Below are positions 33,842 to 54,210 of a DNA stretch of 64,000 nucleotides, one piece after another. A model generated the notes under the pieces. It had not been told where the DNA came from, made no database searches, and saw nothing but the letters and a program-made list of their open reading frames with translations. Within the stretch, counting starts at the first letter, position 1. Each line of letters begins with the position of its first letter. Source of the stretch: Dehalococcoidia bacterium (GTDB lineage Bacteria > Chloroflexota > Dehalococcoidia > Lucifugimonadales > UBA2962); NCBI GenBank assembly GCA_965219325.1, contig OZ244723.1:1981803-2045802 (forward strand). Direction: 5' to 3'. Both the position numbers and the translations under genes were made by a program.

Positions 33842-34897
33842 CTATTCCCTCTCAGGCCGGTCGGGGAGAGCTTCGCTCGAATCCAACCTCACGCCCGGGC
33901 AACAGGGATCACGCCCCCAGGATTTGCATCTTGGCCAAACCCCGGAAAAAGCCGAAAACAGTGCTCCCAGTATTGCGTCCGTGCGCCGACGACTGTCAAC
34001 GGAAATCGGCCGGATTTTGGGCATCCGGCGCCAAAGTGCTAGCAGGCTGCTAGCACCGGAAGGCCACCGGCGCCACAGGTGCACCAGGCCGAGGGTCAGC
34101 ACGCTTCTCAACAGCCTGCGCCTTGCCAGCGCCCTGCGAGTGTCATCGAGGGCGCTGCGGCGCCAGCCCGTCTGGCCCCTGCGCGCAAAGCCCCTGAGCG
34201 GCTCGATCTCCGGCGGCAGCGTCAACCCGTGCTCCTCCAGCATCGCCAGCTCCAGGTTCAGCAGCCTCTCCTCGTCCATGAGCCACGACAGCCCCCGGCC
34301 CTCGTTGGGGTGGGCGTCCCTGAGCTCCCTCCAGTCGGTCACCAGCGGCCATGCGTCCCCGAACACCTCCGGGTCGTCGGGTGCAGGCTCGCGGGTCACG
34401 AGTCCGGGATTCTCGCGCCTGATGACGCCGCGCGGCGCCGGGACGGGAGGGCCGGTCTTCGCCTCGGCGACAGGGGCCGCACTCGCCTCCTCGAGATCGG
34501 ACAGCCTCCTTCCGATCCTGCCCATGCCCCGCGCGAACTCCTCGCGCAGCCTCGCCTCCCGCTCCTCGAATACGGACCGCACCGTCTCAAGACCCGTGCC
34601 TAGCCGTTCCGAGAGCTCGTCGACCCTCTCCTCCAGCGTCTCCAGTCGCCTGCCCTGGTCGGCGACATCGGCGTCGGCCCTCTCGACAAGGGCCCGCTCC
34701 AGCGCCTCGCGGCAGCGCCTGGTCAGCCGTCCCTCGTCCAGGCTGACCTTGATCGTGCGATGGTCGATGCCCAGCTCGCGTGCGGCGCCCTTCAGTCCAC
34801 CCCTGCGGACCATCTCGCTCAGGACGGACTCCAGCCGCAGAAGGTGTGGGTCCTCGACGCTCGTTATGTCATCTAGGGTTGACTTCACCTCATCCAT
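33842..34897 (-). CDS. HTH + coiled-coil protein (possible regulator or relaxosome accessory factor)
   Basis: GLKGAARELGIDHRTI HTH; SD ggaggaggg; the last ~75 codons overlap promoter/operator-like DNA and may be read-through. Confidence 0.65.
   Translation of the reverse strand: MDEVKSTLDDITSVEDPHLLRLESVLSEMVRRGGLKGAARELGIDHRTIKVSLDEGRLTRRCREALERALVERADADVADQGRRLETLEERVDELSERLGTGLETVRSVFEEREARLREEFARGMGRIGRRLSDLEEASAAPVAEAKTGPPVPAPRGVIRRENPGLVTREPAPDDPEVFGDAWPLVTDWRELRDAHPNEGRGLSWLMDEERLLNLELAMLEEHGLTLPPEIEPLRGFARRGQTGWRRSALDDTRRALARRRLLRSVLTLGLVHLWRRWPSGASSLLALWRRMPKIRPISVDSRRRTDAILGALFSAFSGVWPRCKSWGRDPCCPGVRLDSSEALPDRPERE
33969..33999 (-). promoter_or_regulatory. Putative sigma70 promoter of the leftward operon
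   Basis: Perfect TTGACA (33999-33994); weak -10 caatac/aatact at an 18-19 nt spacing. Confidence 0.4.
34033..34056. promoter_or_regulatory. Palindromic operator-like site
   Basis: gtgctagcag-g-ctgctagcac perfect inverted repeat; contains AAGTGCTAGCAG, also present at 35033 and 54187. Confidence 0.65.
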
Positions 34898-34909
34898 TTA
34901 TCCCTCCTC

Positions 34910-35011
34910 CCCCGGGTACAAAATGTCACTTTCGGGGGGGTTTTTGTCCGGGGCCGCCCATCCGGGCGGGGTACAAAATGTCACTTTCGCCGGGGTTTTT
35001 GTACCGCGGGG
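34910..35011. repeat. Two 21-bp direct repeats (55-bp period), each in a hairpin; oriT/iteron candidate
   Basis: gggtacaaaatgtcactttcg at 34914-34934 and 34969-34989, each closed by tttttgt(a)cc. Confidence 0.7.
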
Positions 35012-35032
35012 CTGGAATACGGCCTGTCACCG

Positions 35033-35045
35033 AAGTGCTAGCAGC
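35033..35045. promoter_or_regulatory. Second copy of the AAGTGCTAGCAG operator-like motif
   Basis: Exact 12-nt match to 34034 and 13-nt match to 54187. Confidence 0.55.
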
Positions 35046-35421
35046 ATCTGTCCTGTAGGGACCCCGCCGCCCCTGTAGCAGGCCGCCCGTGCCTCTCTTT
35101 CGTCTCCCGGATTCCCCTCCGAATTCCTGTACACGTCTATGACATCACCTGTCGGCCGGTGAATCCCATGCCGCGGGAGCCGGGGTGCACCGAGCCCCCC
35201 CTGCGGGTCATTACATACAGCACATACGTTCGCGAGACTCGATTGCAGCCGGGACGATCCGTCGCCGGCATCGAGGAGGCGAGTTGCCACTGCAATCGAG
35301 ATCCGGGTCCCCCGGTTTCCCTGCCGACCGTGCATCCACGGATGCCGGGAGGTCGGGTCCGACCTTTTCCGAAGACGCCCTCAGGGGCACATATGTTCTG
35401 CTGAAAAGGGCAAAAAGGGGG

Positions 35422-36009
35422 GTGGCCCGGAGCGTGGGGCGACCGCTGGCGCTCGCCGCGGCCGTGCTGCTCTCCGCACTTGTCGCACTCCCGCCCGTAA
35501 GCGTTGCCCACGCCCAGACCCCGCCGGACGAGATAGTCCTGGTCAACGCCGCCGACGGTCCCGTCGAGCGAAAGAAGGACGGGCGCTTCGTCGCGAGGCC
35601 GGTCTTCGACCGAAGGCTCGACGGTCTGTTCTACGGCATCCGCGATCCAGACAGCGGCGACTGGCTGACGGCCGTGTACCGGGTGATCGGCGGAGAGACC
35701 GCGCTGGTGGACGGGTGGCAGTACGAGTGGGAGTACCCGGCGCTCCCCGAGCAGCCGGCGCTCGAGCCGGACCGAGCCTACCTGCTTGTGATGCTCGCGG
35801 CGGAGACCCTTCCGGGGGACCCGCAGACGATCCGCGCGCTCGTGCCGGTCTATGAGCCGGGGAGCCTGTGGGAGCGGGTGATCCGGGCGATGGACCCGGG
35901 CAGATGGGCGAGGGCTTTCGCCCGCTGGGTGATAGAGGGCGTGCACGGGACCCTGTGCGGGGTGGTCGAGCGGGCGAGCGGCGCGGTCGCGGCGAACTGC
36001 GGGGGCTGA
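35422..36009 (+). CDS. Secreted protein, first gene of the transfer operon
   Basis: GTG start; signal peptide ending AHA-Q. Confidence 0.7.
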   Translation: MARSVGRPLALAAAVLLSALVALPPVSVAHAQTPPDEIVLVNAADGPVERKKDGRFVARPVFDRRLDGLFYGIRDPDSGDWLTAVYRVIGGETALVDGWQYEWEYPALPEQPALEPDRAYLLVMLAAETLPGDPQTIRALVPVYEPGSLWERVIRAMDPGRWARAFARWVIEGVHGTLCGVVERASGAVAANCGG

Positions 36010-36014
36010 TCGGC

Positions 36015-36995
36015 ATGGGCGACGTGATCACCGGCACCCCGGCCAACCTGACCTACGAGCACGAGCTGGTCAGGCAGGCGTGGATAGCCGTCTGGGCGAT
36101 CGCGTCAGGGGCGCTGGTGGTGATCATCGGCTGGATCGGGCTTTCGATGATCGTGTCCGAGCACCTCGGGCGGCCGCAGGCGGGGTGGCGGGAGATGGTG
36201 CCGCGCCTCGTGCTCGGCCTGGTCGCGGCGGCGACGTCGCTGTGGTGGTGCGCGCTGGTGATCGATGTCGCGGACGCGGTCTCGGGATTCATCGCCGGGG
36301 TCTTCGCCCTGGCGCCCGGCGCGCTCCTGCGCTCGTCGATAGACACCCTTCTGACGGCGGTCACGGCCGGGAGCGTGGGGATGGCCCTGCTGCTGGCGTT
36401 CCTCTACCTGCTCTATGGATTTTTCGTGCTCTACGTCCTGGTGCAGATGATCGTCCGCCTGGCCCTGATCGACCTGCTGCTCGCGCTTGCGCCGATGGCG
36501 CTGGGGCTGTGGATCCTGCCGCACACGGCGGGCTGGGGAAGGCACTGGCTGAAGCTGTTCATGACGACCGTGTTCCAGCAGGCGGTGCAGCTGATCGCCC
36601 TGGCGCTTGCGTTCGGGTTCCTTGCGGACTTCGCGGCCATAGGCCCGTTCGAGCCGGTGCAGGACCTGGTCTGGAAGCTGCTGATCTCGCTCTCGTTCGT
36701 CTACCTGACGACCCGCGTGCCGAGCCTGATGGGCAACCCGGGCACGTTCGACGCCTGGCTTCACACGCTGTATTTCGGGATGTCGCTGCCGGGCTCGATC
36801 GTGCGGTCGGCGAGGTCGATCGGGACGGTGGCCGGGGGCATGACGGGTGGCGGTCCTGCTGGCGGCGTGGCCGCGGCCGTCGCAGGCACGGGGCTGGCCG
36901 CGGGAGCGACAGCCGCGATCCGGTCGATGGCCGACGTATCGACACCGTCGTATGCGGGTGGCGAGGGCGCAGCCCCGAGGAGCTCGGGCGAGTGA
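36015..36995 (+). CDS. VirB6/TrbL-like polytopic T4SS membrane protein
   Basis: Multiple TM helices; ..LLLALAPMALGLWILP.T.GWGR.W...F...VFQQ; Gly/Ala-rich tail. Confidence 0.8.
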   Translation: MGDVITGTPANLTYEHELVRQAWIAVWAIASGALVVIIGWIGLSMIVSEHLGRPQAGWREMVPRLVLGLVAAATSLWWCALVIDVADAVSGFIAGVFALAPGALLRSSIDTLLTAVTAGSVGMALLLAFLYLLYGFFVLYVLVQMIVRLALIDLLLALAPMALGLWILPHTAGWGRHWLKLFMTTVFQQAVQLIALALAFGFLADFAAIGPFEPVQDLVWKLLISLSFVYLTTRVPSLMGNPGTFDAWLHTLYFGMSLPGSIVRSARSIGTVAGGMTGGGPAGGVAAAVAGTGLAAGATAAIRSMADVSTPSYAGGEGAAPRSSGE

Positions 36996-37152
36996 TGGCG
37001 GGCGCAAAAGACTTCATGAAGACACGGCCCGGTGGGGCGAGGGGGGGAGGGGCCATGTGCATGTAGGGACCGGTCATGAGGGGACGGAAGAAACGGAAGG
37101 AAAGCGATGAGACGCCGGGCGGGGGAATACCGTCCGGGGAGAGGAGAAGGAA

Positions 37153-37446
37153 ATGGGTGATCTGACGCAGACGATTTCGAACATTGTCGGGATCCTGCTT
37201 GGGCTCGTCGGAGCGGTCGGAGTCGGCTTTTTCATCTACGGGGCGTACCTGTATTTGACGGCTTCCGGCGCACCGCACCAGATGGAGCGTGGCAAGAGCG
37301 CGATGATGACGGCCCTGGCGGGCATCGTCCTGGCGATGGTGGGTTACGGGGTGGTGGAGCTGGTGATGAACGCCGTGGTCAACCCGGCGGTGGAGATCGA
37401 CTCCATACCGGCGCCCGGCACTCCGACGCCGACGCCGACCGGCTGA
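37153..37446 (+). CDS. TrbC/VirB2-like pilin 1
   Basis: Two hydrophobic helices around YLYLTASG..QMERGK. Confidence 0.8.
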   Translation: MGDLTQTISNIVGILLGLVGAVGVGFFIYGAYLYLTASGAPHQMERGKSAMMTALAGIVLAMVGYGVVELVMNAVVNPAVEIDSIPAPGTPTPTPTG

Positions 37447-37460
37447 TGGGAGGTGGCGGT

Positions 37461-39149
37461 ATGACGGAGCACGAGGTGCCGACTCACGTGCAGGCGGAGG
37501 ACAGAGTGGTCCTGTGGTTCACGTTCCCGCAGATCGTTGCCATGACGGCGGTGTGCGCCCTGGGGTACGGGGTTTACCGGTACGCGCCGGTAGGGCCGTC
37601 GGAGGTCCGGATGGGGCTGGCGGTGGTGTTCGCCCTGTTCGGGCTGGCGATGATCGTCGGGAAGGTGGGGGGCAGGCGTCTGCCGGTGGTGCTGGCGGAC
37701 CTTTTGCGGTTCGGCCTGGGGCCCCGGCGATACGTCGGGCCCCCTGCCGACCTGGTGCGCAGCGAGCCTCCCGCGCCGCCGACCCCGCCGCAGATGTCCG
37801 AGAGGGACAGGCGGGCGGACAGGTGGCGAAGGAGACGCTGCAGGGCGAGGGCCCGGCGGACCTTCAGGGCACACGGCTGGTTCGGAAAGCGGCGGCGGCG
37901 GCGCAGGCGGGACCGCTGCAGGGCCCGGCAGGCAAGGGACGAGAAGCCCCGGCGGGGTTGGAAGTGGCTGATGGCAGCGGGGGTCGCCGCACTCTCGGCG
38001 GCGGCCCTTGCCGCCATGTCGCTCACCGCTCCTCCCCCGGCATCGGGGCAGGAGCCGGAGATCGAGGACATCGGCCTGTGGGACATAGAGAGCGAGATCG
38101 AGTTCGAGCCGCGCGAGCCGGTGCCCGGAAGGAGGCTGTACCTCCAGGAATTGAAGGTCAGTGGCGACCGGGCGCACGTCACGCTCCGTGCGGCGACGGA
38201 CCTGGAGGTCCGTGTGAGGGCCTTCGGTGGACTGTGGGGAAGGGAGCTCCGGTTCTGGAGCGCGGCGTCACTGGACGGGCGCGAGACGGTCACCTACTCG
38301 CTTCCCCTGGCGGGCGACGAGCCCTCATTGACGTTTTCCTGGGAAGAGGGGATCGGACAGGGCGGTGCGTTCACCGTCAGGAGGGACCGGATCCCGCGCC
38401 CTCTTCCTTCCATCGCTGGAGAGCTCTGCGACGTCGAGGTCACGTCGCTGGGCTGGACCCCGGGGCTGGTGAGGGGCGTCATCGACGCCGATTGCGTCGG
38501 CCGGCTCGACGAGGTGGTGAAGGTGTGGACGGCGGTGGGCCATGACCTGATCGGCGTCGACGCGGTGATCGAGTCGACGGTGACGGCGATAACCGGCACC
38601 TACACGGTCACCGACGGGGGCTATCACGTGACGGTCCCGTTCGCCGAGGGCGAGACGGAATTCAGCCTCCCGGTGGCGATCGGCGACGTCGTCCGCACGG
38701 TGGAGATCGAACTTGCGCTCGAGGCGACGCTCGAGGTGCCGATGCCGGACCTCGTGAGGCTCACGCACCACCCGGCGCGCACCGAGATGCAGACCCGGTC
38801 GGTGAAGCTCTGGCGTCCGGGCACGGGAAGGACGGTGTCAAGGACGGTCACCATCAGCCACGGTGACGGCACGACATCACGGCACACGATCTCGGCGTAC
38901 CTGTCCATCCCGGGCGCGAACGTCACGAAGAACGTGACGCTGTCGATCCAGCACGAGGAGCACGTGCGCGCCGAGGTGGAGTCCCAGCCGTCCATCGAGC
39001 GAACGCGCATGGAGGAAATGGCCCTCGCGGCGGACATCGGGGCGGACGCCGCATTCCGGGTCATGGTCTATCCCGATCCCGTCGAGGAGACGGCTCCCGC
39101 CGATCAGAGGCCGGCGACGGAGGAGGAAGTGGAGGACCTGTTCGATTGA
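37461..39149 (+). CDS. PrgI-family protein fused to a large extracytoplasmic domain
   Basis: HEVPTHVQAEDRVV..FTFPQ PrgI-like N-terminus; Arg-rich linker; second TM; beta-rich C-terminus. Confidence 0.7.
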   Translation: MTEHEVPTHVQAEDRVVLWFTFPQIVAMTAVCALGYGVYRYAPVGPSEVRMGLAVVFALFGLAMIVGKVGGRRLPVVLADLLRFGLGPRRYVGPPADLVRSEPPAPPTPPQMSERDRRADRWRRRRCRARARRTFRAHGWFGKRRRRRRRDRCRARQARDEKPRRGWKWLMAAGVAALSAAALAAMSLTAPPPASGQEPEIEDIGLWDIESEIEFEPREPVPGRRLYLQELKVSGDRAHVTLRAATDLEVRVRAFGGLWGRELRFWSAASLDGRETVTYSLPLAGDEPSLTFSWEEGIGQGGAFTVRRDRIPRPLPSIAGELCDVEVTSLGWTPGLVRGVIDADCVGRLDEVVKVWTAVGHDLIGVDAVIESTVTAITGTYTVTDGGYHVTVPFAEGETEFSLPVAIGDVVRTVEIELALEATLEVPMPDLVRLTHHPARTEMQTRSVKLWRPGTGRTVSRTVTISHGDGTTSRHTISAYLSIPGANVTKNVTLSIQHEEHVRAEVESQPSIERTRMEEMALAADIGADAAFRVMVYPDPVEETAPADQRPATEEEVEDLFD

Positions 39150-39463
39150 AGCTGCGAAGGCTCATATTACCGGCGCTGCTGGTCGCCGCATCCGTGACGT
39201 CGATGGCTGCCGAACCTCCCGGTGACGCCGAGATGATCGCGCAGTTCGACCGCGTGCTGACGGCGATGGCCTATGCGGCGGCGGGACTTGCGGTCTTCTC
39301 TATCGTCTGGGCCAGCTTCCTGCTCATGGCCGAGGGAAGCGAGGAGCGGGGCAGGGGACGGGCGAGGGCCGCGGTCATGGGCTCTGTGATCGGGCTCGTC
39401 CTGGTGCTCTCTGCGAAGGGCGTTACGTTCGCGCTGACCAGTGCCGTCGGCACGGTCCCGTAG
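39146..39463 (+). CDS. TrbC/VirB2-like pilin 2
   Basis: Signal-like N-terminus; two TM helices around EE.GRGRARAAV. Confidence 0.7.
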   Translation: MKLRRLILPALLVAASVTSMAAEPPGDAEMIAQFDRVLTAMAYAAAGLAVFSIVWASFLLMAEGSEERGRGRARAAVMGSVIGLVLVLSAKGVTFALTSAVGTVP

Positions 39464-39481
39464 GGGAAGGAGTACTCCGGC

Positions 39482-41758
39482 TTGAAGATCCCGTTTCGAA
39501 TCCCGACGGCATTTATGCCCGAAAAAGAGAAGGGGCAGTCCGATCAGCAGATCGGACCGCCCCGGCACCAGGTTAGTCACCCGAACCCAGACTACCAGAT
39601 GTCGACTGACGCGACACCGAAGCCGCCTCCGTCGCTGCCGCTGTTCTTCCTGATGTCGCACCTTGAGAACGACGGTCCGGTGCGGATCGACGGCGTGAAG
39701 GTCGGCGTCTGTGAGCTGATGGGCCTTGAGATCGACGGGCCGAAGCTGGGCGCGTTCGCCGGGGCGCTCAACGCCCTGGACTTCCCGCTGCAGCTCCTGG
39801 TGCGCCAGCACCCTCCGGACCTCGGCGGCCTGCGGGCAAGGCTCAGGGAGGCACAACCCGAGGACCTTCCCGAGCGGACGGGCAGGGCGGCCGAGTCGCT
39901 GCAGGGCCTGCTCACAGACCTTGAAAGCCGCGACGGCATCCTTGACCGGCGCTTCTACGCGGTCTGCCCGGCCGACCACCTCGACGACCTGTGCGGGCTG
40001 CTCGCAAGGGCGGGGCTCTCGGTCCATCCGCTAAGGGGCCGCCAACTCCGGATGCTGGTCCTGGCGTCGGCGCTGGGCGGCTCGCCGGCGGAGATGGACG
40101 AGGACGGGCCGATCGAGATCGAGGTGGGCCGCCGGGACGTCCGCATCGGCGACCGCCTCACCCGGTCGCTGCACCTCGGTCGCTGGCCGCGCAGCCTTGC
40201 GCCCGGTTTCCTGCAGGGCCTTATGGCCGCGGGCGCCCCGATGGACATCTCGATACACCTGGGGGCCATACCTGCCGAACAGGCGGCCCGGACGCTGGAG
40301 TGGCAGAAGGTGCGCTTTGAGTCCGCGCACAGCCTCTCGCTAAAGCGCGGCAGGACTATGTCGCCCGAGGCGGAGATCGCCCTCGAGGACGTTACCCGCC
40401 TCCGGGACGAGGTGCAGCGCGGGCGCGAGCGGCTGTTCCACGCATCGCTGTCGCTCAGGCTCCACGCCGATGACGAGGCTTCCCTCAAGGACATGACCCA
40501 GCGCGCGAGCGCCCACTTCGGAGCCACGCTCGGAAAACTCGACGGGCTGTCGCATCGCCAGCGCGAGGGCCTGGTCTCGGCGCTCACTCTCGGGATGAAC
40601 GCGGTAGGCGCGTGGCGGACGCTGGACACCTCGTCGGTGGCCAGGCTGTTCCCGTTCTCCCCGCCCGACATGGACACACGGAGTGGGACGCTTTACGGGA
40701 TAGACCTGCGGGCCTGCTCGCCGGTGGTCTACGACCCGTTCGACGGTACGCACCTGAACGCGAACACGGCGGTGCTGGCCCGCTCCGGGTCCGGCAAGTC
40801 GTTCTCGACCAAGCTCGGCGTGCTGCGGGGCCTGTGCCACGGGGTGATCGCGTACGTGATTGACCCCGAGGGGGAATACGCGGACATGGCTCGGGCGGCC
40901 GGGGGGCGGGTGCTGTCTCCGGGCGTTCCCGGCCAGGGGATGAACCCGTTCGTGATCGACGCGGGCGACCCCGAGGAGCTCCTTCAGCGCATAGGGAGCC
41001 TTCGGCGCCTGATCGAGGTGATGGTGGGCGAGCGCCTGAGCGCGGAGCGTCGAGCCTCGCTGGACCACTGGCTTGCGACCTACTACGCACGTCCGCGGGA
41101 GCGCACGGGGTTCCGTGACTTCTACGGCTTCCTTGAGGGAGAGGACCGGGATCTGTCGCTGCTGCTGCGGCCGTTCGCGACGGGGAGCCTTCGGCACCTG
41201 CTTAGCGACGGGGGCGACGACCTGCTCGGGAGCGAGGCGCTGGTTACGGTGTTCGACCTCCGGCTGCTGGAGCCCGAGCTGCGGCCGGCCGCGGCGATGG
41301 TGTGCACGGAGACCGTGTGGGCTGCTGCTGCCCAGAACCCGAGGCCCAGGCTGCTGGTGGTCGACGAGGTGTGGAGCATCATGCAGCACCCGGAGGGAGC
41401 GGCGTTCATGGTGAGCATGGCAAAGCGCGCGAGAAAGCACCGGCTCGGCCTCCAGTTCATCACGCAGGACGTTCAGGACCTTTTGAGCGAGGACACGTCG
41501 CGGGCGATCACGGGCCACTCGGGCAGGGCGCTTCTGCAGAACGCGGCGTTCAAGCTGCTCCTCCAGCAGGACGCGGCGGCGATCGGGACGGTGTGCGATG
41601 CGTTCGACCTTCCGGATGAGCTCGGCCGCTGGCTGCTGTCCTGTCCGCGCGGCGACGGTCTGCTGCTCGCCCGCGGCAACCGGATCCCCATTCGCATCGA
41701 GGCGACGGCGGATGAGAAGGACGTCGTCGAGTGGCGGCCAGGAGCCAACCGCGGCTAG
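39482..41758 (+). CDS. VirB4-like conjugation ATPase
   Basis: Walker A ARSGSGKS, VIDPEGEY, Walker B VVDEVW, KRARKH..L.FITQ. Confidence 0.92.
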   Translation: MKIPFRIPTAFMPEKEKGQSDQQIGPPRHQVSHPNPDYQMSTDATPKPPPSLPLFFLMSHLENDGPVRIDGVKVGVCELMGLEIDGPKLGAFAGALNALDFPLQLLVRQHPPDLGGLRARLREAQPEDLPERTGRAAESLQGLLTDLESRDGILDRRFYAVCPADHLDDLCGLLARAGLSVHPLRGRQLRMLVLASALGGSPAEMDEDGPIEIEVGRRDVRIGDRLTRSLHLGRWPRSLAPGFLQGLMAAGAPMDISIHLGAIPAEQAARTLEWQKVRFESAHSLSLKRGRTMSPEAEIALEDVTRLRDEVQRGRERLFHASLSLRLHADDEASLKDMTQRASAHFGATLGKLDGLSHRQREGLVSALTLGMNAVGAWRTLDTSSVARLFPFSPPDMDTRSGTLYGIDLRACSPVVYDPFDGTHLNANTAVLARSGSGKSFSTKLGVLRGLCHGVIAYVIDPEGEYADMARAAGGRVLSPGVPGQGMNPFVIDAGDPEELLQRIGSLRRLIEVMVGERLSAERRASLDHWLATYYARPRERTGFRDFYGFLEGEDRDLSLLLRPFATGSLRHLLSDGGDDLLGSEALVTVFDLRLLEPELRPAAAMVCTETVWAAAAQNPRPRLLVVDEVWSIMQHPEGAAFMVSMAKRARKHRLGLQFITQDVQDLLSEDTSRAITGHSGRALLQNAAFKLLLQQDAAAIGTVCDAFDLPDELGRWLLSCPRGDGLLLARGNRIPIRIEATADEKDVVEWRPGANRG

Positions 41759-41803
41759 ACGGACCGGGACCGGCCGTTCAGGCCGGCACGGGAGGAGGAC
41801 ATC

Positions 41804-44392: not shown

Positions 44393-46080
44393 ACCTCGCC
44401 GAACGCGAGGCGGACCTCCTGCGCTGGCTGGCCCGCGCCCCGCTGGCCGACCGGCTGGACCTCGTCGGTCTGACCGGCTGGTCCAGAGGCTCCGTCTACG
44501 GGGGCGTTGCCAGGCTCGCCGCCGCGGACCTGATCTCCTCGGTGCCCCACTCGTCGCCCCTCGTACCAGCCACCCGCAGGTTCCACCTTTCGGCCGCCGG
44601 ACTTCGCGCGCTGGCCAGGACCGACGGGACGGACATCGGGAGCCTGCTCGGCGCGCATCCCGTGTCACGCCGTTGGGTTCGCATCCTCCTCGAGCGGCTC
44701 GATGCGGTCGCCGTCATCTACCGCTTCGCCTCTGCAGTCTCGACTGTCGCACATCCGATCGGGCTTCGCTGGTACAGGGCGATGCCGCTGGATGCCGCCA
44801 TCTCGCTCCCCTCGGGGCGGACCGTGGGCGTCGTCAGGCAGGGATTGACCTCGGGCAGGACGGGGTTCGCCAAGCGGACCTGGAGGATGCGGCAGGGTCC
44901 CGTGCCCGCAGCCGTGTTCGTGCTCTCGCCCGATCCCGTGAGGCTGCGCCACGCGCGAAGGCTGCTGTCGGGCGGTCCCGGCATGGCGTATCTCGCGCTC
45001 GAGGGCGACGTGGCCGCGGCCGGTGCCTCCGACCGGGTGTGGCGGACTCCCGCGGGTCCGGTGGTGATGGACCTGGCAACGGCGCTCGCCCACCTGGGCA
45101 GGAGCACTGACTGGCCCGCCGAGGAGCCCCTGGCAAGGACATCCGCCCTCGGGGAGGGTGAATCCGACAGGCCAAGCCACGAGCGCCCGGATCGCCCGCG
45201 CAACTACCTGCTGCCGACGATGATCGGCCCCGCCGACAAGCAGGCGCTCGATCTCCTCTGGGACTGGCCCTGGATCACGGCCCCGCACCTGTCGGGGCTG
45301 ATGGCCGTCGAGAGTAGAACGATGTCCATACTCCTGGGCCGCCTGGGCAGGCTGGGCCTGGTGTGCCATGCCGATGCCGGAGGCCACCGTCGCCTTGCAC
45401 TGACCGACAGGGGACTCGCCCTGCTCGCTCGAAGGGACCGCATGTCCGTCGGCGCGGCGAGGAGGAGGTGGAGCGCCGAACCCGCAGATCCCGGCTCCCC
45501 CCTGACCTGGCGCAACGTCTCCGGCTCCGGCAGCAGGCAGCTCCTCCGGCACATCGAGCACACGGATGCCGTGCACTGGTTCTCGGCGGTGCTGGCACGG
45601 CAGGCGCGCGAAGCGTCATCGAAGGTGGCCCAGCTCGACCCGCCCCGCAGGGCGTCCCGGTACTTCAGCCTCGACGGCAGGCTCCACTCGGTTCGCCCCG
45701 ACGCCTTCGGGGTGCTCCGCAGGGACGGGAGGAACCTCCCGTTCTTCCTGGAGTGGGAGCGGCGGGCGGTGCGTCCGGCGACCATGGCCGCCCGGCTCGC
45801 GCCCTACCTTCGTTACTACTCCACGAGGCGTCCCGTCGACGATCACGGTACGCTGCCGTCGGTCCTTGTGGTCTTCGAGGAAGAGCTTGCGGCGGGCCAA
45901 TTCCTGCGCGTGGCCCGGGAGGACATGGGCAGGGCGGGGGTCGAAGTTCCCCTGTGGGTCTCTTGCCGGAGTGTGCTGGAGAGGGTTGGGCCGCTTGGAC
46001 CTGCGTGGAGGTGCGCTGAAGCTAGAGTTCCTGGGGACTCCTCTGCAGGTCCGGTAAGATTCCGGTTACACCCGCGGTAG
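44389..46080 (+). CDS. Replication-relaxation family protein (putative relaxase), tandem domains
   Basis: Two wHTH-nuclease-like halves; the second has HTDAVH, VRPDAFG, FFLEWER; start overlaps the VirD4 stop. Confidence 0.75.
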   Translation: MNLAEREADLLRWLARAPLADRLDLVGLTGWSRGSVYGGVARLAAADLISSVPHSSPLVPATRRFHLSAAGLRALARTDGTDIGSLLGAHPVSRRWVRILLERLDAVAVIYRFASAVSTVAHPIGLRWYRAMPLDAAISLPSGRTVGVVRQGLTSGRTGFAKRTWRMRQGPVPAAVFVLSPDPVRLRHARRLLSGGPGMAYLALEGDVAAAGASDRVWRTPAGPVVMDLATALAHLGRSTDWPAEEPLARTSALGEGESDRPSHERPDRPRNYLLPTMIGPADKQALDLLWDWPWITAPHLSGLMAVESRTMSILLGRLGRLGLVCHADAGGHRRLALTDRGLALLARRDRMSVGAARRRWSAEPADPGSPLTWRNVSGSGSRQLLRHIEHTDAVHWFSAVLARQAREASSKVAQLDPPRRASRYFSLDGRLHSVRPDAFGVLRRDGRNLPFFLEWERRAVRPATMAARLAPYLRYYSTRRPVDDHGTLPSVLVVFEEELAAGQFLRVAREDMGRAGVEVPLWVSCRSVLERVGPLGPAWRCAEARVPGDSSAGPVRFRLHPR

Positions 46081-46118: not shown

Positions 46119-48068
46119 ATGAGAGTCTACGGCCTGTTGTTCGGATCCCTCCTAGCAATTGGTTGTTCCTTACCGGGCGATTCTCCTCCACAAAACGAGC
46201 CGCCGGACATCGAGGCAACGGTACAGGCGCTCGTGGCCGAGGCACTACCCACTGAAACCGCTGTGCCGACGCCGGACATCGAGGCGACGGTACAGGCGCT
46301 CGTGGCCGAGGCACTACCCACTGAAACCGCTGTGCCGACGCCAGACATCGAGGCGACGGTACAGGCGCTCGTGGCTGAGACACAGCCGACCGAGACTGCC
46401 GTCCCGACGCCGGTTCCGACACCGACGCGTTCTCACACCCCCACGCCGGTTCCAACACCAACACCCACACCCACACCTACACCGACGCCCACGCCCACGC
46501 CCACGCCGGTTCCGACGCCGACGTTGGAGACCGGCGTGACCGGTCAGCGGTTCGGCGGAGATCTTCGGATAGTCTCGCAGGGCTCGATCAGCACGCTGGA
46601 CCCGGTGTTCTCGCTCTTCTATGTGGTGAACGTGGTGGCAACCCAGATCTACGAGGGTCTGTATGGCTGGGACGGGAACTTAGAGCCACAACCTCGATTG
46701 GCCGAGTCGTTCGCGACGAACGCGGATGGGAAGGTGTACACGTTCAAGCTGCGATCGGGTATCGAGTTCCACAACGGTGACACCTTCAAGGCTTCTGACG
46801 CGGTAGCGTCGATCAACCGGTGGAGGGATGGAGGTACGCCTGCTGCGGGCATGGTGCGGCGTTTTACTTATGGCTATGCACTGCAGGCAGTGGACGACAC
46901 GACGTTTTCTTGGAGGTTCAACGAGCCCCTGGGTGCAGTGATCTTCATCCTTGGAATCCCGCACGGTTTGATGCCGATGGTTCCCGAGGAAATGGCAGCG
47001 ACGCCGTTCACGGAGCCGATGTCAGCGAACATAGGTACGGGAGCCTACAAGTTCGTCGAATGGCTGCAGGGAGACAGGGTGGTGCTTGAACGCCACGACG
47101 GGTTCCAATCCAGGAGAGAGCCGAGTTCCCCCGGTGCGTACGCGGGAGAGAACATTGCGTACCTGGACACGCTGACGTTCCTAGAGGTTGCCTGGGAAGA
47201 GACGAAGATAGCGGGTCTCGAGACCGGCAAATGGGATATGGTGGACGGAGCGGCGTTCGACTTCTTCCAGCGGCTCACGGACGACCCCGACATCGAGGTA
47301 ACGCAGTACAGGCCGGGTATCCGGTCGAACGTGTACCTGAACCCGCAGGTCCCGCCGTTCAGATACCAGAAGGGTCGCCAGGCGCTGATGACGGGAATCG
47401 ACGTAGAGGACTTCATGTTCGCGCTTGGTCCGCCCGACCTGTGGATCACGTGCCCGGCGCTATATTTTTGCGGGACCCCGCTGGAGACGGACATAGGGGC
47501 CCGGTTTGACGTTCAGCTTGCCGACGGCAGCACTGCCAGAATCGGCTACGACGTCAACAACATGGATCTTGCCCGGCAGCTCTTGGCGGAGTCGGACTAC
47601 GCCGGTGAGACTGCGGTGATCATGAACCCGACGGACTACGGCACGATCACGCCCCTGGGTCCGGTGCTCAAGTCGGCGATGGAGGACATCGGGTACGCGG
47701 TGGAGATGCCGGCCCTTGACTGGGCGACGGTGACGTCGATGTTCGGCAACACGGACTCGTACAGTCTTGCGACGGACTGGTACTCGCACTGGTGCTGCGG
47801 CAACCCGATCCAGGACCACCTGATCAGCGGTACGCTGGACTTCATCATCCGGGACGAGGAGCTGATCAACCTTCAGCTGGAGTTCGTACGCGAGACGGAT
47901 GCGGCCAAGCGATTCGAGATCGTAGAGGAGATCCAGTCCCTGCGGTGGCAGAAGGTGACATCGCTGTCGCTGGGACAGTTCTTTCCGATCGTGCCACACA
48001 CGAATGACCTGAAGGGGTTTGAGGTGAAGGCGATCCCGTTCTACGCTAACACTTGGCTGGAACGGTAG
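46119..48068 (+). CDS. Family 5 ABC substrate-binding lipoprotein with N-terminal repeats
   Basis: Lipobox LAIGC; 3x PDIEATVQ repeat; PT linker; TLDP, IYEGL, P.LAES, IGTGAYKF; no permease genes nearby. Confidence 0.88.
   Translation: MRVYGLLFGSLLAIGCSLPGDSPPQNEPPDIEATVQALVAEALPTETAVPTPDIEATVQALVAEALPTETAVPTPDIEATVQALVAETQPTETAVPTPVPTPTRSHTPTPVPTPTPTPTPTPTPTPTPTPVPTPTLETGVTGQRFGGDLRIVSQGSISTLDPVFSLFYVVNVVATQIYEGLYGWDGNLEPQPRLAESFATNADGKVYTFKLRSGIEFHNGDTFKASDAVASINRWRDGGTPAAGMVRRFTYGYALQAVDDTTFSWRFNEPLGAVIFILGIPHGLMPMVPEEMAATPFTEPMSANIGTGAYKFVEWLQGDRVVLERHDGFQSRREPSSPGAYAGENIAYLDTLTFLEVAWEETKIAGLETGKWDMVDGAAFDFFQRLTDDPDIEVTQYRPGIRSNVYLNPQVPPFRYQKGRQALMTGIDVEDFMFALGPPDLWITCPALYFCGTPLETDIGARFDVQLADGSTARIGYDVNNMDLARQLLAESDYAGETAVIMNPTDYGTITPLGPVLKSAMEDIGYAVEMPALDWATVTSMFGNTDSYSLATDWYSHWCCGNPIQDHLISGTLDFIIRDEELINLQLEFVRETDAAKRFEIVEEIQSLRWQKVTSLSLGQFFPIVPHTNDLKGFEVKAIPFYANTWLER
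46203..46409 (+). repeat. Three tandem 69-bp coding repeats (PDIEATVQALVAEALPTETAVPT)
   Basis: Units start at 46203, 46272 and 46341. Confidence 0.9.
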
Positions 48069-48134
48069 CGTCGCAGCCGCAATCGCATTGGGTGACCGGG
48101 GGCCTTGTCTCCTCACTGGCTTAAGATGTGACCC

Positions 48135-50216
48135 ATGAGGGTCTCTAGCCTGCTGTTCGTCGCTCTTCTACTAGCGGGCTGTTCGACCCTTGGCGAGACG
48201 CCTCGACGGGCTGCGGCCCCGGACATCGACGCGACTGTGCGGGCGAGTGTAGCTGCGGCGCTGCCGACCGAAACGCCCATTCCTACGCCGGATATAGATG
48301 CAACGGTGCAAGCTGCCGTTGCTGCGGCGCTGCCGACCGAAACGCCCGTCCCTACCCCGGACATAAACGCAACGGTCGAAGCACGGATGGCAGCCACTGC
48401 CGCTGCTATGCCCATGCCAACCCTGACCCCGACCGCAGCATCGACTCCCACGCACACGCCCTCTCCGACTCCAACTGCTGCGCCAACTCCCACTCACACG
48501 GCGACGCCGACTCCGACTCACACGCCTACGCCCACGGCCACAGCCACGGCTACACCAACACCGACAGCAACAGCGACACCAACACCAACCAATACGCCCA
48601 TTCCGGACCGGGCAGAGAACTTGGAGGTGGCGGTGAGCGAAATGGTCAAACGGGTGCGGCCCGCCGTTGTCAGGATTTCGAGCACCAGCGGGACCGGGAC
48701 GGGGGTGATCTTCGATACGGTAGGCGATGTGGGCTACGTCGTCACCAACTTCCATGTTGTGGAGGGTCGGCGGTCGGTGAGCGTGACTGTGGGGGACTCG
48801 GTCACACATGACGGCAGAGTTCTGGGTGTGGACACTGTGAGAGATCTGGCCGTGGTCAGCCTCTGCTGTGGCCAGTTCACTTCGCTGGCCTTCGGCGATT
48901 CCTCAGACCTGGATCCCGGCGATGAGGTCGTAAGCATCGGCTACGCTCTGGGCATCCAGGGATCCGCGACGGTCACCAAGGGCATCGTGTCGGCCGTGCG
49001 ATACGATCCCGCCTACCGGGCTCATGTCATACAGGCCGACGCCCCCATCAACCCAGGTAACAGCGGTGGTCCGATGCTGTCCCTAGATGGCCTGGTACTG
49101 GGCATAAACACCTTCAAACACTTCGGAGCCGACGTGGAGGGCCTGGGATTCGCAATATCTGCGGATACCGTGCTTGATCAGATCCCGGTGCTCCGGGCGG
49201 GCACCGAATTGCCGGACCCCGAACCCCCGGTCGTACCGTTACAGGGTGACTCGTGGGGGCCGATGAGTGGCGAGCTAAGGCATGACCCAACCTCCACATT
49301 GATTAATGTTGAATTCGCCGATGCCTGGGTCACAGACATGGTAGTTGAGGCCAGTTTTGTGAATCCCTATGGAGCCTCCGACAATACTTGGGACTACGGC
49401 TTCATCCTGCGAAACAGCCTCGACCGTCCTTTCCTGCAATTCGTGGTCTCAAGCGACCGCCATTGGGTCGTCCTGACTGGACAGGAACCTCCATACGATC
49501 AGATTGCGCGCGGCACTTTCAGCGGCCTCAACACGGGAGCCAGAGGGCGGAACCACCTCATGGTGATCGCCATTGGGGAGCGAGGATGGTTCGTTGTCAA
49601 CGGCGAGCTAATGGCGGCCGCAGGGCTTGAGAGTGCCACGCACAGTGGCGACGTCGCCGTCATGACAGGAGCTTACGAGGGAGATGAGGTTGCTGGAGCG
49701 TCCACCCTCTACGAGGACTTCCAGGGCTACAGTCTCGAGAGACGATACGGTCCTTCTGATGGCACAATCGTGGACGATGAGAGCGGCAACATCAGCGCGC
49801 AACAGAGTGGTGTGTGGACACGGGATGTGGTTGTTGAGGCGGAGTTTGTAAATCCCTCGGATGGGCAATGGGATTATGGGTTTCTAATACGACAACCTGA
49901 ATACAACCGTCTTGAGGTTATCAACTTTGCGAACAACGGATGGTGGTCACATCAAACACGCGATGTGCGTGATTCAGAATACACGGAAGTGGCGTCCGGT
50001 CCACTTGCGAATTCACTGGCCACGCCATCAAGACGCAACCATATGCTATTGATCGCGATCAGAGACGCCGGTTGGCTATTCATCAATGACCAGTTGGTAA
50101 GCAAATTGGACTTGGCGCACAATCAGGCCGAAGGCTACGTCAGCGCCGCCGCCAACTTCTGGCTCGGCCACCGCTCAGAGGTGGACCTTCATAACTTCAC
50201 TGTTTGGAAGCGTTAA
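48135..50216 (+). CDS. Trypsin-like (HtrA/DegP-type, no PDZ) serine protease lipoprotein with two C-terminal beta-sandwich repeats
   Basis: Lipobox LLAGC; PDIDATV repeats; triad TNFHVV, RDLAVV, GNSGGP; duplicated VEA.FVNP...WDYGF..R domain. Confidence 0.88.
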   Translation: MRVSSLLFVALLLAGCSTLGETPRRAAAPDIDATVRASVAAALPTETPIPTPDIDATVQAAVAAALPTETPVPTPDINATVEARMAATAAAMPMPTLTPTAASTPTHTPSPTPTAAPTPTHTATPTPTHTPTPTATATATPTPTATATPTPTNTPIPDRAENLEVAVSEMVKRVRPAVVRISSTSGTGTGVIFDTVGDVGYVVTNFHVVEGRRSVSVTVGDSVTHDGRVLGVDTVRDLAVVSLCCGQFTSLAFGDSSDLDPGDEVVSIGYALGIQGSATVTKGIVSAVRYDPAYRAHVIQADAPINPGNSGGPMLSLDGLVLGINTFKHFGADVEGLGFAISADTVLDQIPVLRAGTELPDPEPPVVPLQGDSWGPMSGELRHDPTSTLINVEFADAWVTDMVVEASFVNPYGASDNTWDYGFILRNSLDRPFLQFVVSSDRHWVVLTGQEPPYDQIARGTFSGLNTGARGRNHLMVIAIGERGWFVVNGELMAAAGLESATHSGDVAVMTGAYEGDEVAGASTLYEDFQGYSLERRYGPSDGTIVDDESGNISAQQSGVWTRDVVVEAEFVNPSDGQWDYGFLIRQPEYNRLEVINFANNGWWSHQTRDVRDSEYTEVASGPLANSLATPSRRNHMLLIAIRDAGWLFINDQLVSKLDLAHNQAEGYVSAAANFWLGHRSEVDLHNFTVWKR

Positions 50217-51058: not shown

Positions 51059-51295
51059 GCTCCAAGACTTATGTATCCAAACTTCGAGCCTTCTGACTCA
51101 AACGGGTCGTCGCACTGCGACAGTTCACACTCGGTGAGGGGATTGTCCGAGCGTAGGTGGGAAAACCGCTTTACCCCAGGGCGGTGACGGTGTCACACGG
51201 GAGGTGTGAACGCCGTAACCGACCTGCAGCGCCGCTTGCGGGAGGCCGAGACGGGTTCGGCCGAGACGGTGGCCTCCTCAGGATCGGCTGTAGCC

Positions 51296-51950: not shown

Positions 51951-52084
51951 CAGGCGGCTAATTCTTCTCGAATCTCTCGTCTAGCAACCTGACCGGAAGG
52001 AGTAGAACGATGGCTAACGCAGGGTATTCGGCATCCGGCTCGGCTAAAGTCACTCTCAGGCCCGCCCATGAGTGGGCTAGGAAG

Positions 52085-52648
52085 ATGGCTGAAGTCAAAA
52101 GGAACGGTAGCAAGGTTGCTAGGCGCATGCGGGAGGAGGGGAGGCGGTTTGAGATAGAAGTGCTGGCCCCTGAGGAGATTAGGGAGGGGGACACGGTTCC
52201 CCTCGGTGCGGTCATCCTCTATCCCAACTGGAAGATTGCTACTAGGCTGGACATGGTGGAACCGGCGAGAGAATTGATTAGTCGGGCCTACACCATTGAA
52301 TCCCTCGACCCGGCTCTGCCGACTGTCCTGAGGGCGGTCATCGAGGGCAAAGGGCTGTACGAACACAGCATCGGGGAGTTCTTTGAACTGTTCGGTAGAT
52401 TCCTTGGCAAGTACGGATTGGCCAAGCAGGACGAGGTCAGAGACAGGATGACGTCCTTGGTGGACGGTGACCGAAGGTACCTAAAGGCGTACATGGCTCG
52501 GGGTAAATCTGAACTCCATCCCCTGCCATTTGCGGTCAGGAATATCCTGGCTCATCCCGAAAACAAGGCTAACGCTCTTGATCCCAAGGGCGAAGAACTG
52601 AGAAAGTCCATAGAATTGCTCCGGGCGTGGTTGGCTCTAAAGAAGTAG
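52085..52648 (+). CDS. Hypothetical protein with a HEPN-like RxxxxH motif
   Basis: LPFAVRNILAHPEN...ELRKSIELLR. Confidence 0.6.
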   Translation: MAEVKRNGSKVARRMREEGRRFEIEVLAPEEIREGDTVPLGAVILYPNWKIATRLDMVEPARELISRAYTIESLDPALPTVLRAVIEGKGLYEHSIGEFFELFGRFLGKYGLAKQDEVRDRMTSLVDGDRRYLKAYMARGKSELHPLPFAVRNILAHPENKANALDPKGEELRKSIELLRAWLALKK

Positions 52649-52754
52649 CTTGCAAAAGCCGAGGGATCGACCCGGGCGCTAGCCAGCGTCGGCAGCGCTG
52701 GCCATCAGGACCATGACTGGTTGCCGCGGCCGAGTCCGATAATGATGAGATCCG

Positions 52755-53027
52755 TCACCGATCCTCGCCGCCGCCGACATCTACCTCGGGCAGCAGGATA
52801 TGCAGCATGTCCATCCGCGCGGCCAGGCTGAACAGCGAATAGAGGTTGCCCGGACCCGGCCGTGTACCGTTCTTCCAGCGCCGTACCACGCGGGGGTCCG
52901 TCCGCAGCATCCGGGCAAGGCCCCGCCACGACAGTCCGGCCGCCTCCTTCAGCTGCTCGAGCCGCTCCGGGAAGTCGCGGGGAAGCTCCGATCGCTCCCG
53001 GCGGTAGACGCATCTCTGGCGACCCAT
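52755..53027 (-). CDS. Small XRE/Cro-like HTH protein D
   Basis: PRDFPERLEQLKEAAGLSWRGLARML..VRRWKNG.RP. Confidence 0.8.
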   Translation of the reverse strand: MGRQRCVYRRERSELPRDFPERLEQLKEAAGLSWRGLARMLRTDPRVVRRWKNGTRPGPGNLYSLFSLAARMDMLHILLPEVDVGGGEDR

Positions 53028-53031
53028 GGCC

Positions 53032-53295
53032 CTATGACTCCCCGCCGCCTTCCCGGATCCCCTCACCGAACAGCGCGTCGGTGCCTCCGGGAACCCGTGA
53101 GGCAAGAGTGCGCAGGGCGGTCATCCCGCGATCGTTCGGGCGGACGCCGGAGCGCCAGCGAAACACCTGCTCGTGCCTGACCCCGATCATCCTGGCGAAG
53201 GCGACCCACGACAGCCCGGTGAGCGACCTGAGGTGGTCGAGTCGCCGCGGGAAATCCGGCGGCAGGCGTTCGTCCATGGACCCCGCGTCATTCAT
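53032..53295 (-). CDS. Small XRE/Cro-like HTH protein C
   Basis: PPDFPRRLDHLRSLTGLSWVAFARMIG..VFRWRSG.RP. Confidence 0.8.
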   Translation of the reverse strand: MNDAGSMDERLPPDFPRRLDHLRSLTGLSWVAFARMIGVRHEQVFRWRSGVRPNDRGMTALRTLASRVPGGTDALFGEGIREGGGES

Positions 53296-53594
53296 CGCCC
53301 GGCATCCTCCCCCCGCCTGCGCGTTTCGAACGGCTCCTCGCCCAGGAGCGCCCTGAGCCCCCCGGGGACCATGACGGCCATCCGGCAGATGGCGAGCATG
53401 GGTCCCCCGCTGGGATGGGCTCCCCTGCGCCACCGAAGGACCTGCCTGCAGTCGACGCCGAGGCAGGCCGCGAATCCCTCCCATGAAAGCCCGGAGGCCT
53501 CCTTGAGCACGCACAGTCGCCGGGGGAAGTCGTCCGGCATCAGCGCGACGCCGGGCGTGAAGAGGGCACGGGAGGATGTGCGCTCAGCTCTCAT
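53292..53594 (-). CDS. Small XRE/Cro-like HTH protein B
   Basis: PDDFPRRLCVLKEASGLSWEGFAACLG..VLRWRRG.HP. Confidence 0.8.
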   Translation of the reverse strand: MRAERTSSRALFTPGVALMPDDFPRRLCVLKEASGLSWEGFAACLGVDCRQVLRWRRGAHPSGGPMLAICRMAVMVPGGLRALLGEEPFETRRRGEDAGR

Positions 53595-53841
53595 CGATGA
53601 GAGTCTCCTTGCAGTGCTCGATCACGAAGATGTCACTGAAAGTGACGCCCAGCACCTCTACGAGACGCTGCATGGTCTCGATGGATGGGCTGCGCTTTCG
53701 GTTCACCAGTTGCGACAGATAGGCCCCGGTGATGCCGGCCCTGCGTGCGAGCTCGTTCTGGGAGATGCCCCTCGCGCGCAGCAGCTCCCACAGTGCGTCG
53801 GCGTCGATCCATACCCTGAGCGGGCGGTGCTCAGGCCGCAT
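53584..53841 (-). CDS. XRE/Cro-like HTH protein A
   Basis: RGISQNELARRAGITGAYLSQLVNRKRSPS. Confidence 0.85.
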   Translation of the reverse strand: MRPEHRPLRVWIDADALWELLRARGISQNELARRAGITGAYLSQLVNRKRSPSIETMQRLVEVLGVTFSDIFVIEHCKETLIDES

Positions 53842-54110
53842 GGCGGCGGTCGTCCTCGACGGCCTGCCCCCCTCCGGGCGGTCTTGCAGCGTGAAGCCCT
53901 CTCGGCCTCGCTGGCGCCCATGTGGGACTCGGCAATCATGGGCGCCAGCGCGTCGAGGCCCCGATCGGGCAGTTCCTCCTGCCCTAATGTCTGCTGTATG
54001 TCGTCCGGCAGCGGTCAATTCCTTGGCGATGGGGCCGGACCGGCGTCCCGCGGTTGTGCGCATGGGCACATGAGCGATATACTGGCAACGCCTCGTGGAA
54101 CAATAGTTCT

Positions 54111-54210
54111 AGTGCTTGCCAGACTGTAGCAATCGGTGCTAACTAATGGCAAGGGTTTGCGGGGCATATCCGGGCACGTCGGCCCAAAGTGCTAGCAGCG
54201 AGCTAGTGCC
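54111..54210. promoter_or_regulatory. Divergent switch region with operator-like repeats
   Basis: agtgcttgcc, ggtgctaact, aagtgctagcagc, agctagtgcc; possible leftward TTGCCA-N18-TACAGT promoter. Confidence 0.55.

Follow-up and report, generated by a model that had tools for sequence, protein, structure and literature searches.

What reads the same 12-nt sequence at three control points of one mobile element, the outermost of which lie 20 kb apart? The question arises from a 64,000-nt stretch of contig OZ244723.1 (assembly GCA_965219325.1, positions 1,981,803 to 2,045,802; hereafter the window), which belongs to an uncultured member of the Dehalococcoidia (Chloroflexota). Pfam scans show that the window carries an integrative conjugative element (ICE) with a type IV secretion system (T4SS), here called element A. 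Its backbone includes two divergent operons, one for DNA processing on the minus strand and one for transfer on the plus strand. The far end of the element is a regulatory module, in which an array of helix-turn-helix (HTH) genes on the minus strand faces an immR-like gene (Table 1). The 12-mer, AAGTGCTAGCAG, is found twice beside the backbone operons and once beside the immR-like gene. Sequence comparisons point to it being a shared, element-specific operator, and it is probably the operator unit of the element's own XRE repressor, a protein of 134 amino acids that resembles ImmR and DdrO and is referred to below as ImmR.

A rare motif at three probable control points

An exact scan of the window finds AAGTGCTAGCAG at 34034-34045 (site 1), 35033-35044 (site 2) and 54187-54198 (site 3), all on the plus strand and separated by 999 bp and 19,154 bp. 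Chance would supply 0.01 copies, and none of 100 dinucleotide-preserving shuffles reached three. The whole genome (3,247,277 bp, 62.7% G+C) contains three copies, every one of them within this window. A first-pass annotation of the sequence had reported the 12-mer at just these three regulatory-looking positions and had described its core as palindromic. Both statements hold, and the idea that the motif might be common genome-wide, which would have refuted the proposed regulon, does not. The palindromic core is 8 bp long (TGCTAGCA) and has 13 copies in the genome, five of which are in the window. The 10-mer GTGCTAGCAG has seven copies, four in the window and the remaining three at chance level, and the looser pattern TAGCA-N(0-12)-TGCTA occurs 13 times in the genome.

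The three sites differ in form. Sites 1 and 3 have 28 nt in common at 82% identity, consisting of CCAAAGTGCTAGCAG and a second unit 11 bp on, and 34031-34045 and 54184-54198 are identical over 15 nt. Both have two units 11 bp apart, that is, on one helix face, and site 2 has a single unit.

The motif is conserved at equivalent places in a related element. A further species within the genus (G007, OZ242262.1) has the 12-mer at 1961096, 1962087 and 1983111. These copies are in an element designated G007a that is only 73-84% DNA-identical to element A, yet carries the exact sequence at all three places, with spacings of 991 bp and 21,024 bp. Alignments of the two elements show the 12-mer as an island of identity within diverged flanks at each site. 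A fourth copy in G007 (at 1675803) and a single copy in a further genome (G009) are what is left of site 2 in other elements of this ICE type; in G009 only 300 bp of the control region survive, and immR, p351 (the first gene of the minus-strand operon) and the backbone gene are missing. Single copies in more distant genomes are no commoner than those of a reversed-pattern control.

Motif cores change together across the ICE family

If one element-specific protein reads the three sites, elements of different specificity should differ at all three in the same way. The first such case is in the window's own genome, which has a second, collinear and paralogous ICE (element B, ~1,717,400-1,755,500). 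The backbone proteins of elements A and B are 72-96% identical and the regulators are much more diverged: p351 is 38% identical, the Cro-like protein 46%, the small HTH paralogues 46-49%, the ImmA-like protein 51% and ImmR 70%. The relaxase is also strongly diverged (54%). The sequence GCTAGC is not found in the control regions of element B, which carries TTCGCC(GG) at all three equivalent places. At site 1 this takes the form GGTTCGCCGGCGTTCGCC, directly after the p351 stop codon and with two units 10-11 bp apart; at site 2 it is AAGTGTTCGCCGGAT, and at site 3, ahead of immR, it is CGTTCGCTCCAATTCGCCGGAT. The sequence TTCGCCGGAT has 10 copies genome-wide, two of which are at sites 2 and 3 of element B.

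The comparison extends to 21 elements from 16 genomes, 20 of which were used for tests of the core sequences. Gene order is the same in all 20, and so are the positions of the motif: at or beside the promoter of immR, at a distance of 81-86 nt from a conserved leader block, and 21 nt after a GTGGAAC box. Site 2 can be defined by position alone, since the GTGGAAC box is itself 113-118 nt before a CCTGTACAC...ATGACATCAC box; this distance to the CTGTACA box applies to 18 of the 19 elements with the box found, and is 102 nt in the other (G298a). In 12 elements, the distance of the site-1 core from the conserved GCTGGAAAAAGCC anchor is fixed, at +81/82 nt (+85/86 in the subfamily of element A). 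The 5-nt core of site 2 falls into the classes CTAGC, TTCGC, CTCGC, CTTGC, CTGCC and TTGCC. In 16 of 20 elements this core is found again within 170 nt upstream of that element's immR, where cores of other classes are found at a rate of 15.9% (permutation p<5e-5), and in 14 of 20 it is found in the element's own site-1 window, against 20.7% for foreign cores (permutation p=1.5e-4), neither test being corrected for relatedness between elements. At least 6/7 core classes agree between sites. Across the family, site 2 has the general form TGC-NN-GCA, and the double sites have TGCT-N11-AGCA. The core palindrome survives symmetric changes, being TGCTAGCA in element A, TGTTAACA in G007d (a further element of G007) and CGCCGGCG at site 1 of element B, which fits a symmetric dimer.

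Hence, three positionally fixed sites change their specificity letters together, the pattern expected of one element-specific DNA-binding protein. This co-variation is the strongest evidence for a shared operator. The first-pass annotation had proposed a single protein for all three sites, and both the invariance of the 12-mer in G007a and the concerted changes across the 20 elements are in its favor.

The immunity module and the promoter of immR

Site 3 lies between immR and the divergent Cro-like gene that begins the HTH array, with degenerate copies nearby, as had been noticed at first. These are the adjoining partner unit and two weaker ones, TAGTGCTTGCCAG at 54110-54122 and TAGCA-N5-TGCTA at 54127-54141, the latter occupying the shared spacer of two overlapping divergent promoter-like sites. 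In the subfamily of element A, immR has no Shine-Dalgarno sequence, and in five of its six elements a -10-like TAYNNA precedes the ATG by exactly 5 nt. Logan contigs of 90-95% relatives, from a coral metatranscriptome, contain RNA of immR/immA-like, relaxase-like and leader regions, which are thus transcribed somewhere; none has a usable 5' end, and the end of one contig at 54230 is a weak hint. Apparently, the immR start is leaderless, with the operator over the -35 region and spacer; the 12-mer and its partner would then span ~-42 to -19. In most relatives the immR promoter reads TTGACA-N16-18-TAACAAT, with the operator inside the spacer. The divergent Cro-like/immR layout is found in all 21 elements with an immR match, plus G007d.

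The closest solved structures to ImmR are those of DdrO (6jq1 and 6rnz; E 5e-9 to 1e-7), which is of similar length, and other matches in the Protein Data Bank are XRE proteins. No close relative above 61% identity was found in a scan of Joint Genome Institute metagenomes. The adjacent immA/IrrE-like protein recurs in an unusual form, HE[TA][YCF]EIIHE being present in six relatives; a pattern search found no such motif in the other 15 homologues compared. This protein has no NCBIfam or PHROG match. An operator-like inverted repeat, TAGCAAGGTTGCTA (TAGCAA-GG-TTGCTA), is also seen near the HTH array at 52108-52121, within an unannotated open reading frame (ORF) of 212 amino acids.

Two probable control points in the backbone

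Site 2 is upstream of both divergent operons, as the first-pass annotation had stated. It lies in the 387-bp gap between the p351 start codon (ATG, 34897) and the start of the first T4SS-operon gene (TTG, 35284); the ribosome-binding site and TTG start of the latter were read from the G007a alignment. Two readings of site 2 as a promoter part were discarded. The -10 of an ECF-type promoter (GGAAC-N16-GTG) does not fit, as the supposed -10 letters vary (GTGC, TTGC, CCGC, ATGC), and the GG-N10-GC spacing of a sigma-54 site does not fit either. Farther downstream, at 35239-35300, a conserved 11-bp stem (CTCGATTGCAG / CTGCAATCGAG) surrounds the GGAGGAGG ribosome-binding site and the TTG start. The stem is present in elements A, B, G007a and G007d with a variable loop, and may be a translational control hairpin.

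Site 1 is associated with the promoter-like site of the DNA-processing operon. Here the first-pass annotation needs some adjustment. It had described a palindrome ~35 bp upstream of a TTGACA. The palindrome is indeed a perfect one of 21 bp, and the distance is 34 nt from the end of the 12-mer to the beginning of the TTGACA, the 12-mer being upstream only when the sequence is read on the minus strand. Moreover, site 1 is within the annotated p351 ORF of 351 codons, though in an unconserved tail. In the alignment with G007a, both hexamers (TTGACA and AATACT) are conserved and the spacer has diverged, a promoter-like footprint; relatives carry TTCCAA or TTCCAT and AATACT or ATAATC where this element has TTGACA and AATACT. 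In relatives, the p351 gene ends just ahead of the motif. The ORF of element A (33842-34162) and that of G007a have lost the stop before site 1 and run through the operator and promoter for ~70-100 unconserved codons.

The leader block downstream of this promoter, from which the position of site 1 is measured, exceeds the adjacent coding DNA in conservation and has a weak terminator-like hairpin (33970 to 33952). It could be an attenuator or another structured leader; Rfam covariance models gave no match at E<=1 between 33000 and 35500. The leader (33880-33977, minus strand) includes GGCUUUUUCC, and relatives repeat gggagagcgaggctcgatcc units farther downstream. On the other side of p351, the twin repeats directly upstream of the gene are kept in G007a, and element B and other relatives have different ones (ATGTCCCA...GGGACAT). 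These repeats look like a second element-specific cis system, separate from the 12-mer, and are possibly operators of p351.

Which protein reads the operator?

Two kinds of reader have to be weighed: ImmR, which we favor, and another HTH protein of the same element. In the second case the shared operator would be real and its reader would be the Cro-like protein, one of the three small HTH paralogues, or p351, which after the flip of the switch would activate the backbone operons and shut off immR. In a variant, the Cro-like protein and ImmR could share sites, as in lambda. We regard a reader other than ImmR as unlikely, and it is the alternative that survives best. The center of site 1 is ~75-80 bp upstream of the promoter start, where activators typically bind, and site 2 adjoins the conserved GTGGAAC box, a potential partner site. 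The p351, Cro-like, h2 and h3 proteins are strongly diverged between elements A and B relative to the backbone, and the HTH of p351 is nearly identical in A and G007a, which share an operator. The same HTH of p351 is, however, found in elements of the CTTGC and CTCGC classes, between which ImmR differs. The recognition helix of the Cro-like protein is likewise identical in A and G007d despite their different operators, whereas that of ImmR differs (ISDP versus ISSP). The constancy of these two proteins, and the separate element-specific repeats beside the start of p351, favor ImmR over its neighbors. The geometry also favors ImmR: the immR core promoter of most relatives has the motif between its -35 (TTGACA) and its -10 (TAACAAT), where a repressor that regulates its own gene usually binds.

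Several observations weigh against control of all three sites by ImmR as a repressor, in addition to the relatedness between the elements compared above. First, immR, cro, the small HTH paralogues, p351 and immA all diverge together between elements, so that co-variation alone cannot name the binder. Second, the recognition helix of ImmR and the operator class are not related one-to-one: two operators, TGCTAGCA and TGTTAGCA, are found with ISDPYLSQ, and two core classes, CTCGC and CTTGC, with SGSYLSQ. Third, unanchored shared-word tests (longest common substring and best ungapped match, 20-21 elements) gave only p=0.03 to 0.005; their power is low, and the position-anchored tests were used in their place. 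Fourth, the promoters leave gaps. No T4SS-operon promoter was identified near site 2, a strict consensus scan did not call the DNA-processing promoter at 33969-33999, with its 19-nt spacer, and the distance of site 1 from that promoter is more typical of an activator site. Fifth, the lone palindrome of site 2, at 8 bp, is a short target for an HTH dimer. Finally, the ImmA-like protein scores 19.9 bits against Pfam Peptidase_M78, below the 22-bit cutoff, and lacks HEXXH. A simple one-residue code, in which an Asp-to-Ser change in ImmR would accompany the change from CTAGCA to TTAACA, was suggested by the comparison of G007a with G007d and was rejected, as other ISDPYLSQ repressors adjoin TGTTAGCA.

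Two further explanations dispense with a repressor operator altogether. One is that the copies have another role, as recombination or att-like repeats bracketing the 20-kb transfer module or as relaxase/oriT sites, or that they are a chance repeat. This is very improbable. The direct orientation of the three copies, the 15 nt common to sites 1 and 3 and the divergence of the relaxase between A and B would fit such a role; chance is excluded by the counts in shuffled sequences, in this genome and in the genomes of relatives, no recombinase gene is tied to the copies, no relative lacks the intervening segment (all 20 are collinear), and neither oriT nor att explains why one copy is always in the immR promoter. 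The other takes the palindromes for RNA hairpins, which would work as a terminator or attenuator downstream of p351 and within the immR leader. It can be dismissed almost entirely: the terminator-like call at 54189-54209 + CGATTGTTTA on the plus strand and the TTTGG that follows the site-1 palindrome on the minus strand are countered by the absence of a terminator call at site 1 and hence of a G+C-rich hairpin with a U-run at every copy (only site 3 was called), by the lone 12-mer of site 2, which has no second arm with which to form a hairpin, by the non-palindromic or directly repeated units of relatives (GTTCGCCGGCGTTCGCC in B, ATTGCTCGCTCCGATGTAGCAG in others), and by the conservation of primary sequence rather than pairing, the second arm of site 1 being degraded in G007a where the 12-mer is intact.

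How might the three sites work together?

We infer the identity of the binder, repression as the sign of control, looping and cleavage, and the scheme that follows is conditional on ImmR as the reader. In the integrated state, ImmR dimers would be bound at both backbone sites and in the immR/cro control region, where site 3 and the units at 54116-54152 would serve the autoregulation of immR and the silencing of the Cro-like gene and HTH array, which the divergent promoters would also drive. At the immR promoter and at site 2, repression would be by occlusion, and site 2, from its fixed place in the T4SS-side scaffold, would control the transfer operon. Simple occlusion is unlikely at site 1, given its location at ~-75 to -80; looping, a roadblock or activation would be needed. 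Thus, site 1 might block read-through transcription, might form a loop around p351 with site 2, which is 1 kb away, or might be an activator site. All three points would be freed together once the repressor is inactivated, presumably through the protease-like protein encoded next to it. Induction by cleavage is assumed here, since that protein has HExxExxH in the place of HEXXH.

Genes and sequences around the control regions

Table 1. Positions of the 12-mer copies and associated features in the window (position 1 is its first nucleotide).
Feature	Position	Strand	Remarks
DNA-processing operon	22671-33563	-	primase, Rad52, TSCPD, SSB, RadC, DUF2958, methyltransferase and helicase (Pfam)
p351, first gene of the minus-strand operon	33842-34897	-	HTH-like N-terminus, coiled coil, no known family; homology ends at ~residue 245
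Leader block, anchor for site 1	33880-33968	-	nearly invariant (~90 nt) in the G007a alignment; contains GGCTTTTTCC
DNA-processing promoter-like site	33969-33999	-	TTGACA (33999 to 33994), AATACT (33974 to 33969), 19-nt spacer
Site 1, 12-mer AAGTGCTAGCAG	34034-34045	+	left half of the palindrome; kept in G007a; positional homologues with element-specific cores in 12 relatives
Perfect 21-bp palindrome GTGCTAGCAGGCTGCTAGCAC	34036-34056		GTGCTAGCAG-G-CTGCTAGCAC; two TGCTAGCA units 11 bp apart; 28-nt similarity to 54184-54211
Twin 34-nt direct repeats	34914-35002 (34914-34947, 34969-35002)		each an inverted repeat, GGTACAAAA-N17-TTTTGTACC; directly upstream of p351
CTGGAAT	35012-35018	+	GTGGAAC box of this element; 21 nt before site 2
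Site 2, 12-mer AAGTGCTAGCAG	35033-35044	+	lone unit in the T4SS-side control region
Conserved box CCTGTACACGTCTATGACATCAC	35126-35148	+	at a fixed distance downstream of site 2 (alignments)
Transfer operon	35284-46080	+	VirB6-like protein, two pilins, PrgI-like protein, VirB4, coupling protein, Replic_Relax relaxase
Cro-like HTH_3 gene (53584-53841), then three small paralogous HTH genes	52755-53841	-	alternative candidate binders
Overlapping divergent promoter-like sites	54116-54152		plus strand TTGCCA-18-TAACTA; minus strand TTGCCA-18-TACAGT
Site 3, 12-mer AAGTGCTAGCAG	54187-54198	+	30 nt ahead of the immR ATG (54229)
Partner unit CGAGCTAGTGCC	54199-54210	+	11-12 bp from the first unit; relatives have GAGTTAGCACC
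immR-like gene (XRE repressor, 134 amino acids)	54229-54633	+	recognition helix ISDPYLSQ; Pfam HTH_31 5.8e-12, HTH_3 2.1e-9
immA/IrrE-like gene	54630-55682	+	overlaps the immR stop codon; HEIYEITHE (HExxExxH) instead of HEXXH

In the minus-strand operon, p351 is followed by two small ORFs, the primase gene and then the other DNA-processing genes (33.6 to 22.7 kb). PHROGs and NCBIfam searches placed neither p351 nor the small HTH genes nor the first T4SS-operon gene in a family, and no KorA- or ParB-family repressor domain was found among 54 window proteins scanned against Pfam. A tRNA-Thr(CGU) called by ARAGORN within the primase gene (32049-32124, minus strand) is probably a false positive of G+C-rich coding DNA. 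Cargo genes lie downstream of the transfer operon. They include genes for a solute-binding protein and a trypsin-like protease (46200-46560, 48217-48560), whose N-termini share 69-nt tandem repeats and Pro/Thr-rich repeats.

No integrase was recognized in the window. In close relatives, immA is directly followed by a tyrosine integrase (L273) or a serine recombinase (L274), and the chromosomal flank is the gamma-glutamyltranspeptidase gene (here 62451-63935). A coral-metagenome contig of a relative skips from 55670 to 62441, which makes ~6.7 kb here (the 55700-62450 region) an extra insert.

The family is widespread in the class and often multicopy, with relatives of ImmR in 32 of 401 sampled genomes; loci that encode relatives number 303 in genomes and 352 in metagenomes. 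In G007, a backbone gene is present at six places, and some elements are disrupted by an insertion sequence (IS). For example, G007d (2904500-2935230) and the copy at 1675803 have the same IS end inserted in the conserved CTGTACAC box. The insertion severs p351 and sites 1 and 2 from the transfer operon, so both of these copies are decaying.

What would a shared operator mean for the element?

The Chloroflexota are abundant in sponges, corals, sediments and soils and are mostly uncultured. To our knowledge, nothing is known about the regulation of conjugative elements in this phylum, and no paper on ICEs of Dehalococcoidia was found in the one literature library consulted. We tentatively suggest that the immunity switch of this ICE is wired to two distant points of the backbone in an element-specific way, with at least six specificity classes and a possible loop enclosing p351, such that paralogous ICEs could coexist without cross-repression or cross-induction. 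If this is true, there are three implications. First, the family would be a natural panel of presumably orthogonal repressor-operator pairs, with specificity changes that can be read from sequence. Second, it would explain how up to six related copies coexist in one genome (there are two here, and six copies of a backbone gene in the sister species). Third, there would be a concrete wiring scheme to test, in which one repressor acts at three control points in an ICE family that is widespread.

Comparison with known systems

The regulatory module is most readily compared with ImmR/ImmA of ICEBs1 from Bacillus subtilis. In both, an XRE repressor gene is overlapped by a COG2856/M78-like gene at one end of the ICE, the promoters are divergent, and the repressor's own promoter carries operators; relatives of element A also have the integrase beside the module. 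ICEBs1 has its ImmR sites only in the immR-xis intergenic region, and its transfer genes are carried on one long transcript from Pxis. In element A, by contrast, two separate backbone operons, 19 and 20 kb away, have further copies of the operator. Another difference from ICEBs1 is the motif of the protease-like protein, HExxExxH rather than HEXXH, and sequence similarity is limited to the HTH.

A precedent for wiring of this kind is the kor regulon of the IncP plasmid RK2, in which identical short palindromic operators across the conjugative backbone tie replication/processing and transfer to one repressor. The likeness of element A, with its identical palindromic operator at several backbone promoters, is in working only. 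KorA and the ParB-like KorB are unrelated proteins, and RK2 is a plasmid with many more sites and no protease-controlled immunity switch.

For the repressor itself, the nearest parallel is DdrO, which controls a regulon through one shared palindromic motif and is cleaved by a COG2856 protease (PMC6868357). The Deinococcus DdrO/IrrE pair combines a small XRE repressor that has a C-terminal dimerization domain with a COG2856 protease, and one palindromic motif is used at many promoters (PMC6868357, PMC5552922); the pair described here resembles it, with a protease-like protein as the putative COG2856 partner. DdrO, however, governs a chromosomal stress regulon (radiation and desiccation) through a 17-bp motif (RDRM), whereas element A is a mobile element with three sites and a motif that varies by element.

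Phage lambda offers a third parallel. As with CI and Cro, the repressor and Cro-like genes are divergent, multipartite operators lie in overlapping promoters, further operator clusters lie kilobases away (in lambda, OL and OR, which loop), and specificity classes (immunity types) would let related elements coexist. Element A differs in being an ICE, in its shorter operator unit, and in having a DdrO-like repressor rather than a self-cleaving S24 LexA-like protein. The principle is not new, as lambda, ICEBs1 and RK2 all have operators of a repressor at more than one promoter. What is new is the ICE family, the three-point layout with its proposed direct wiring to two distant operons, the co-diversifying specificity classes, and the unusual protease motif.

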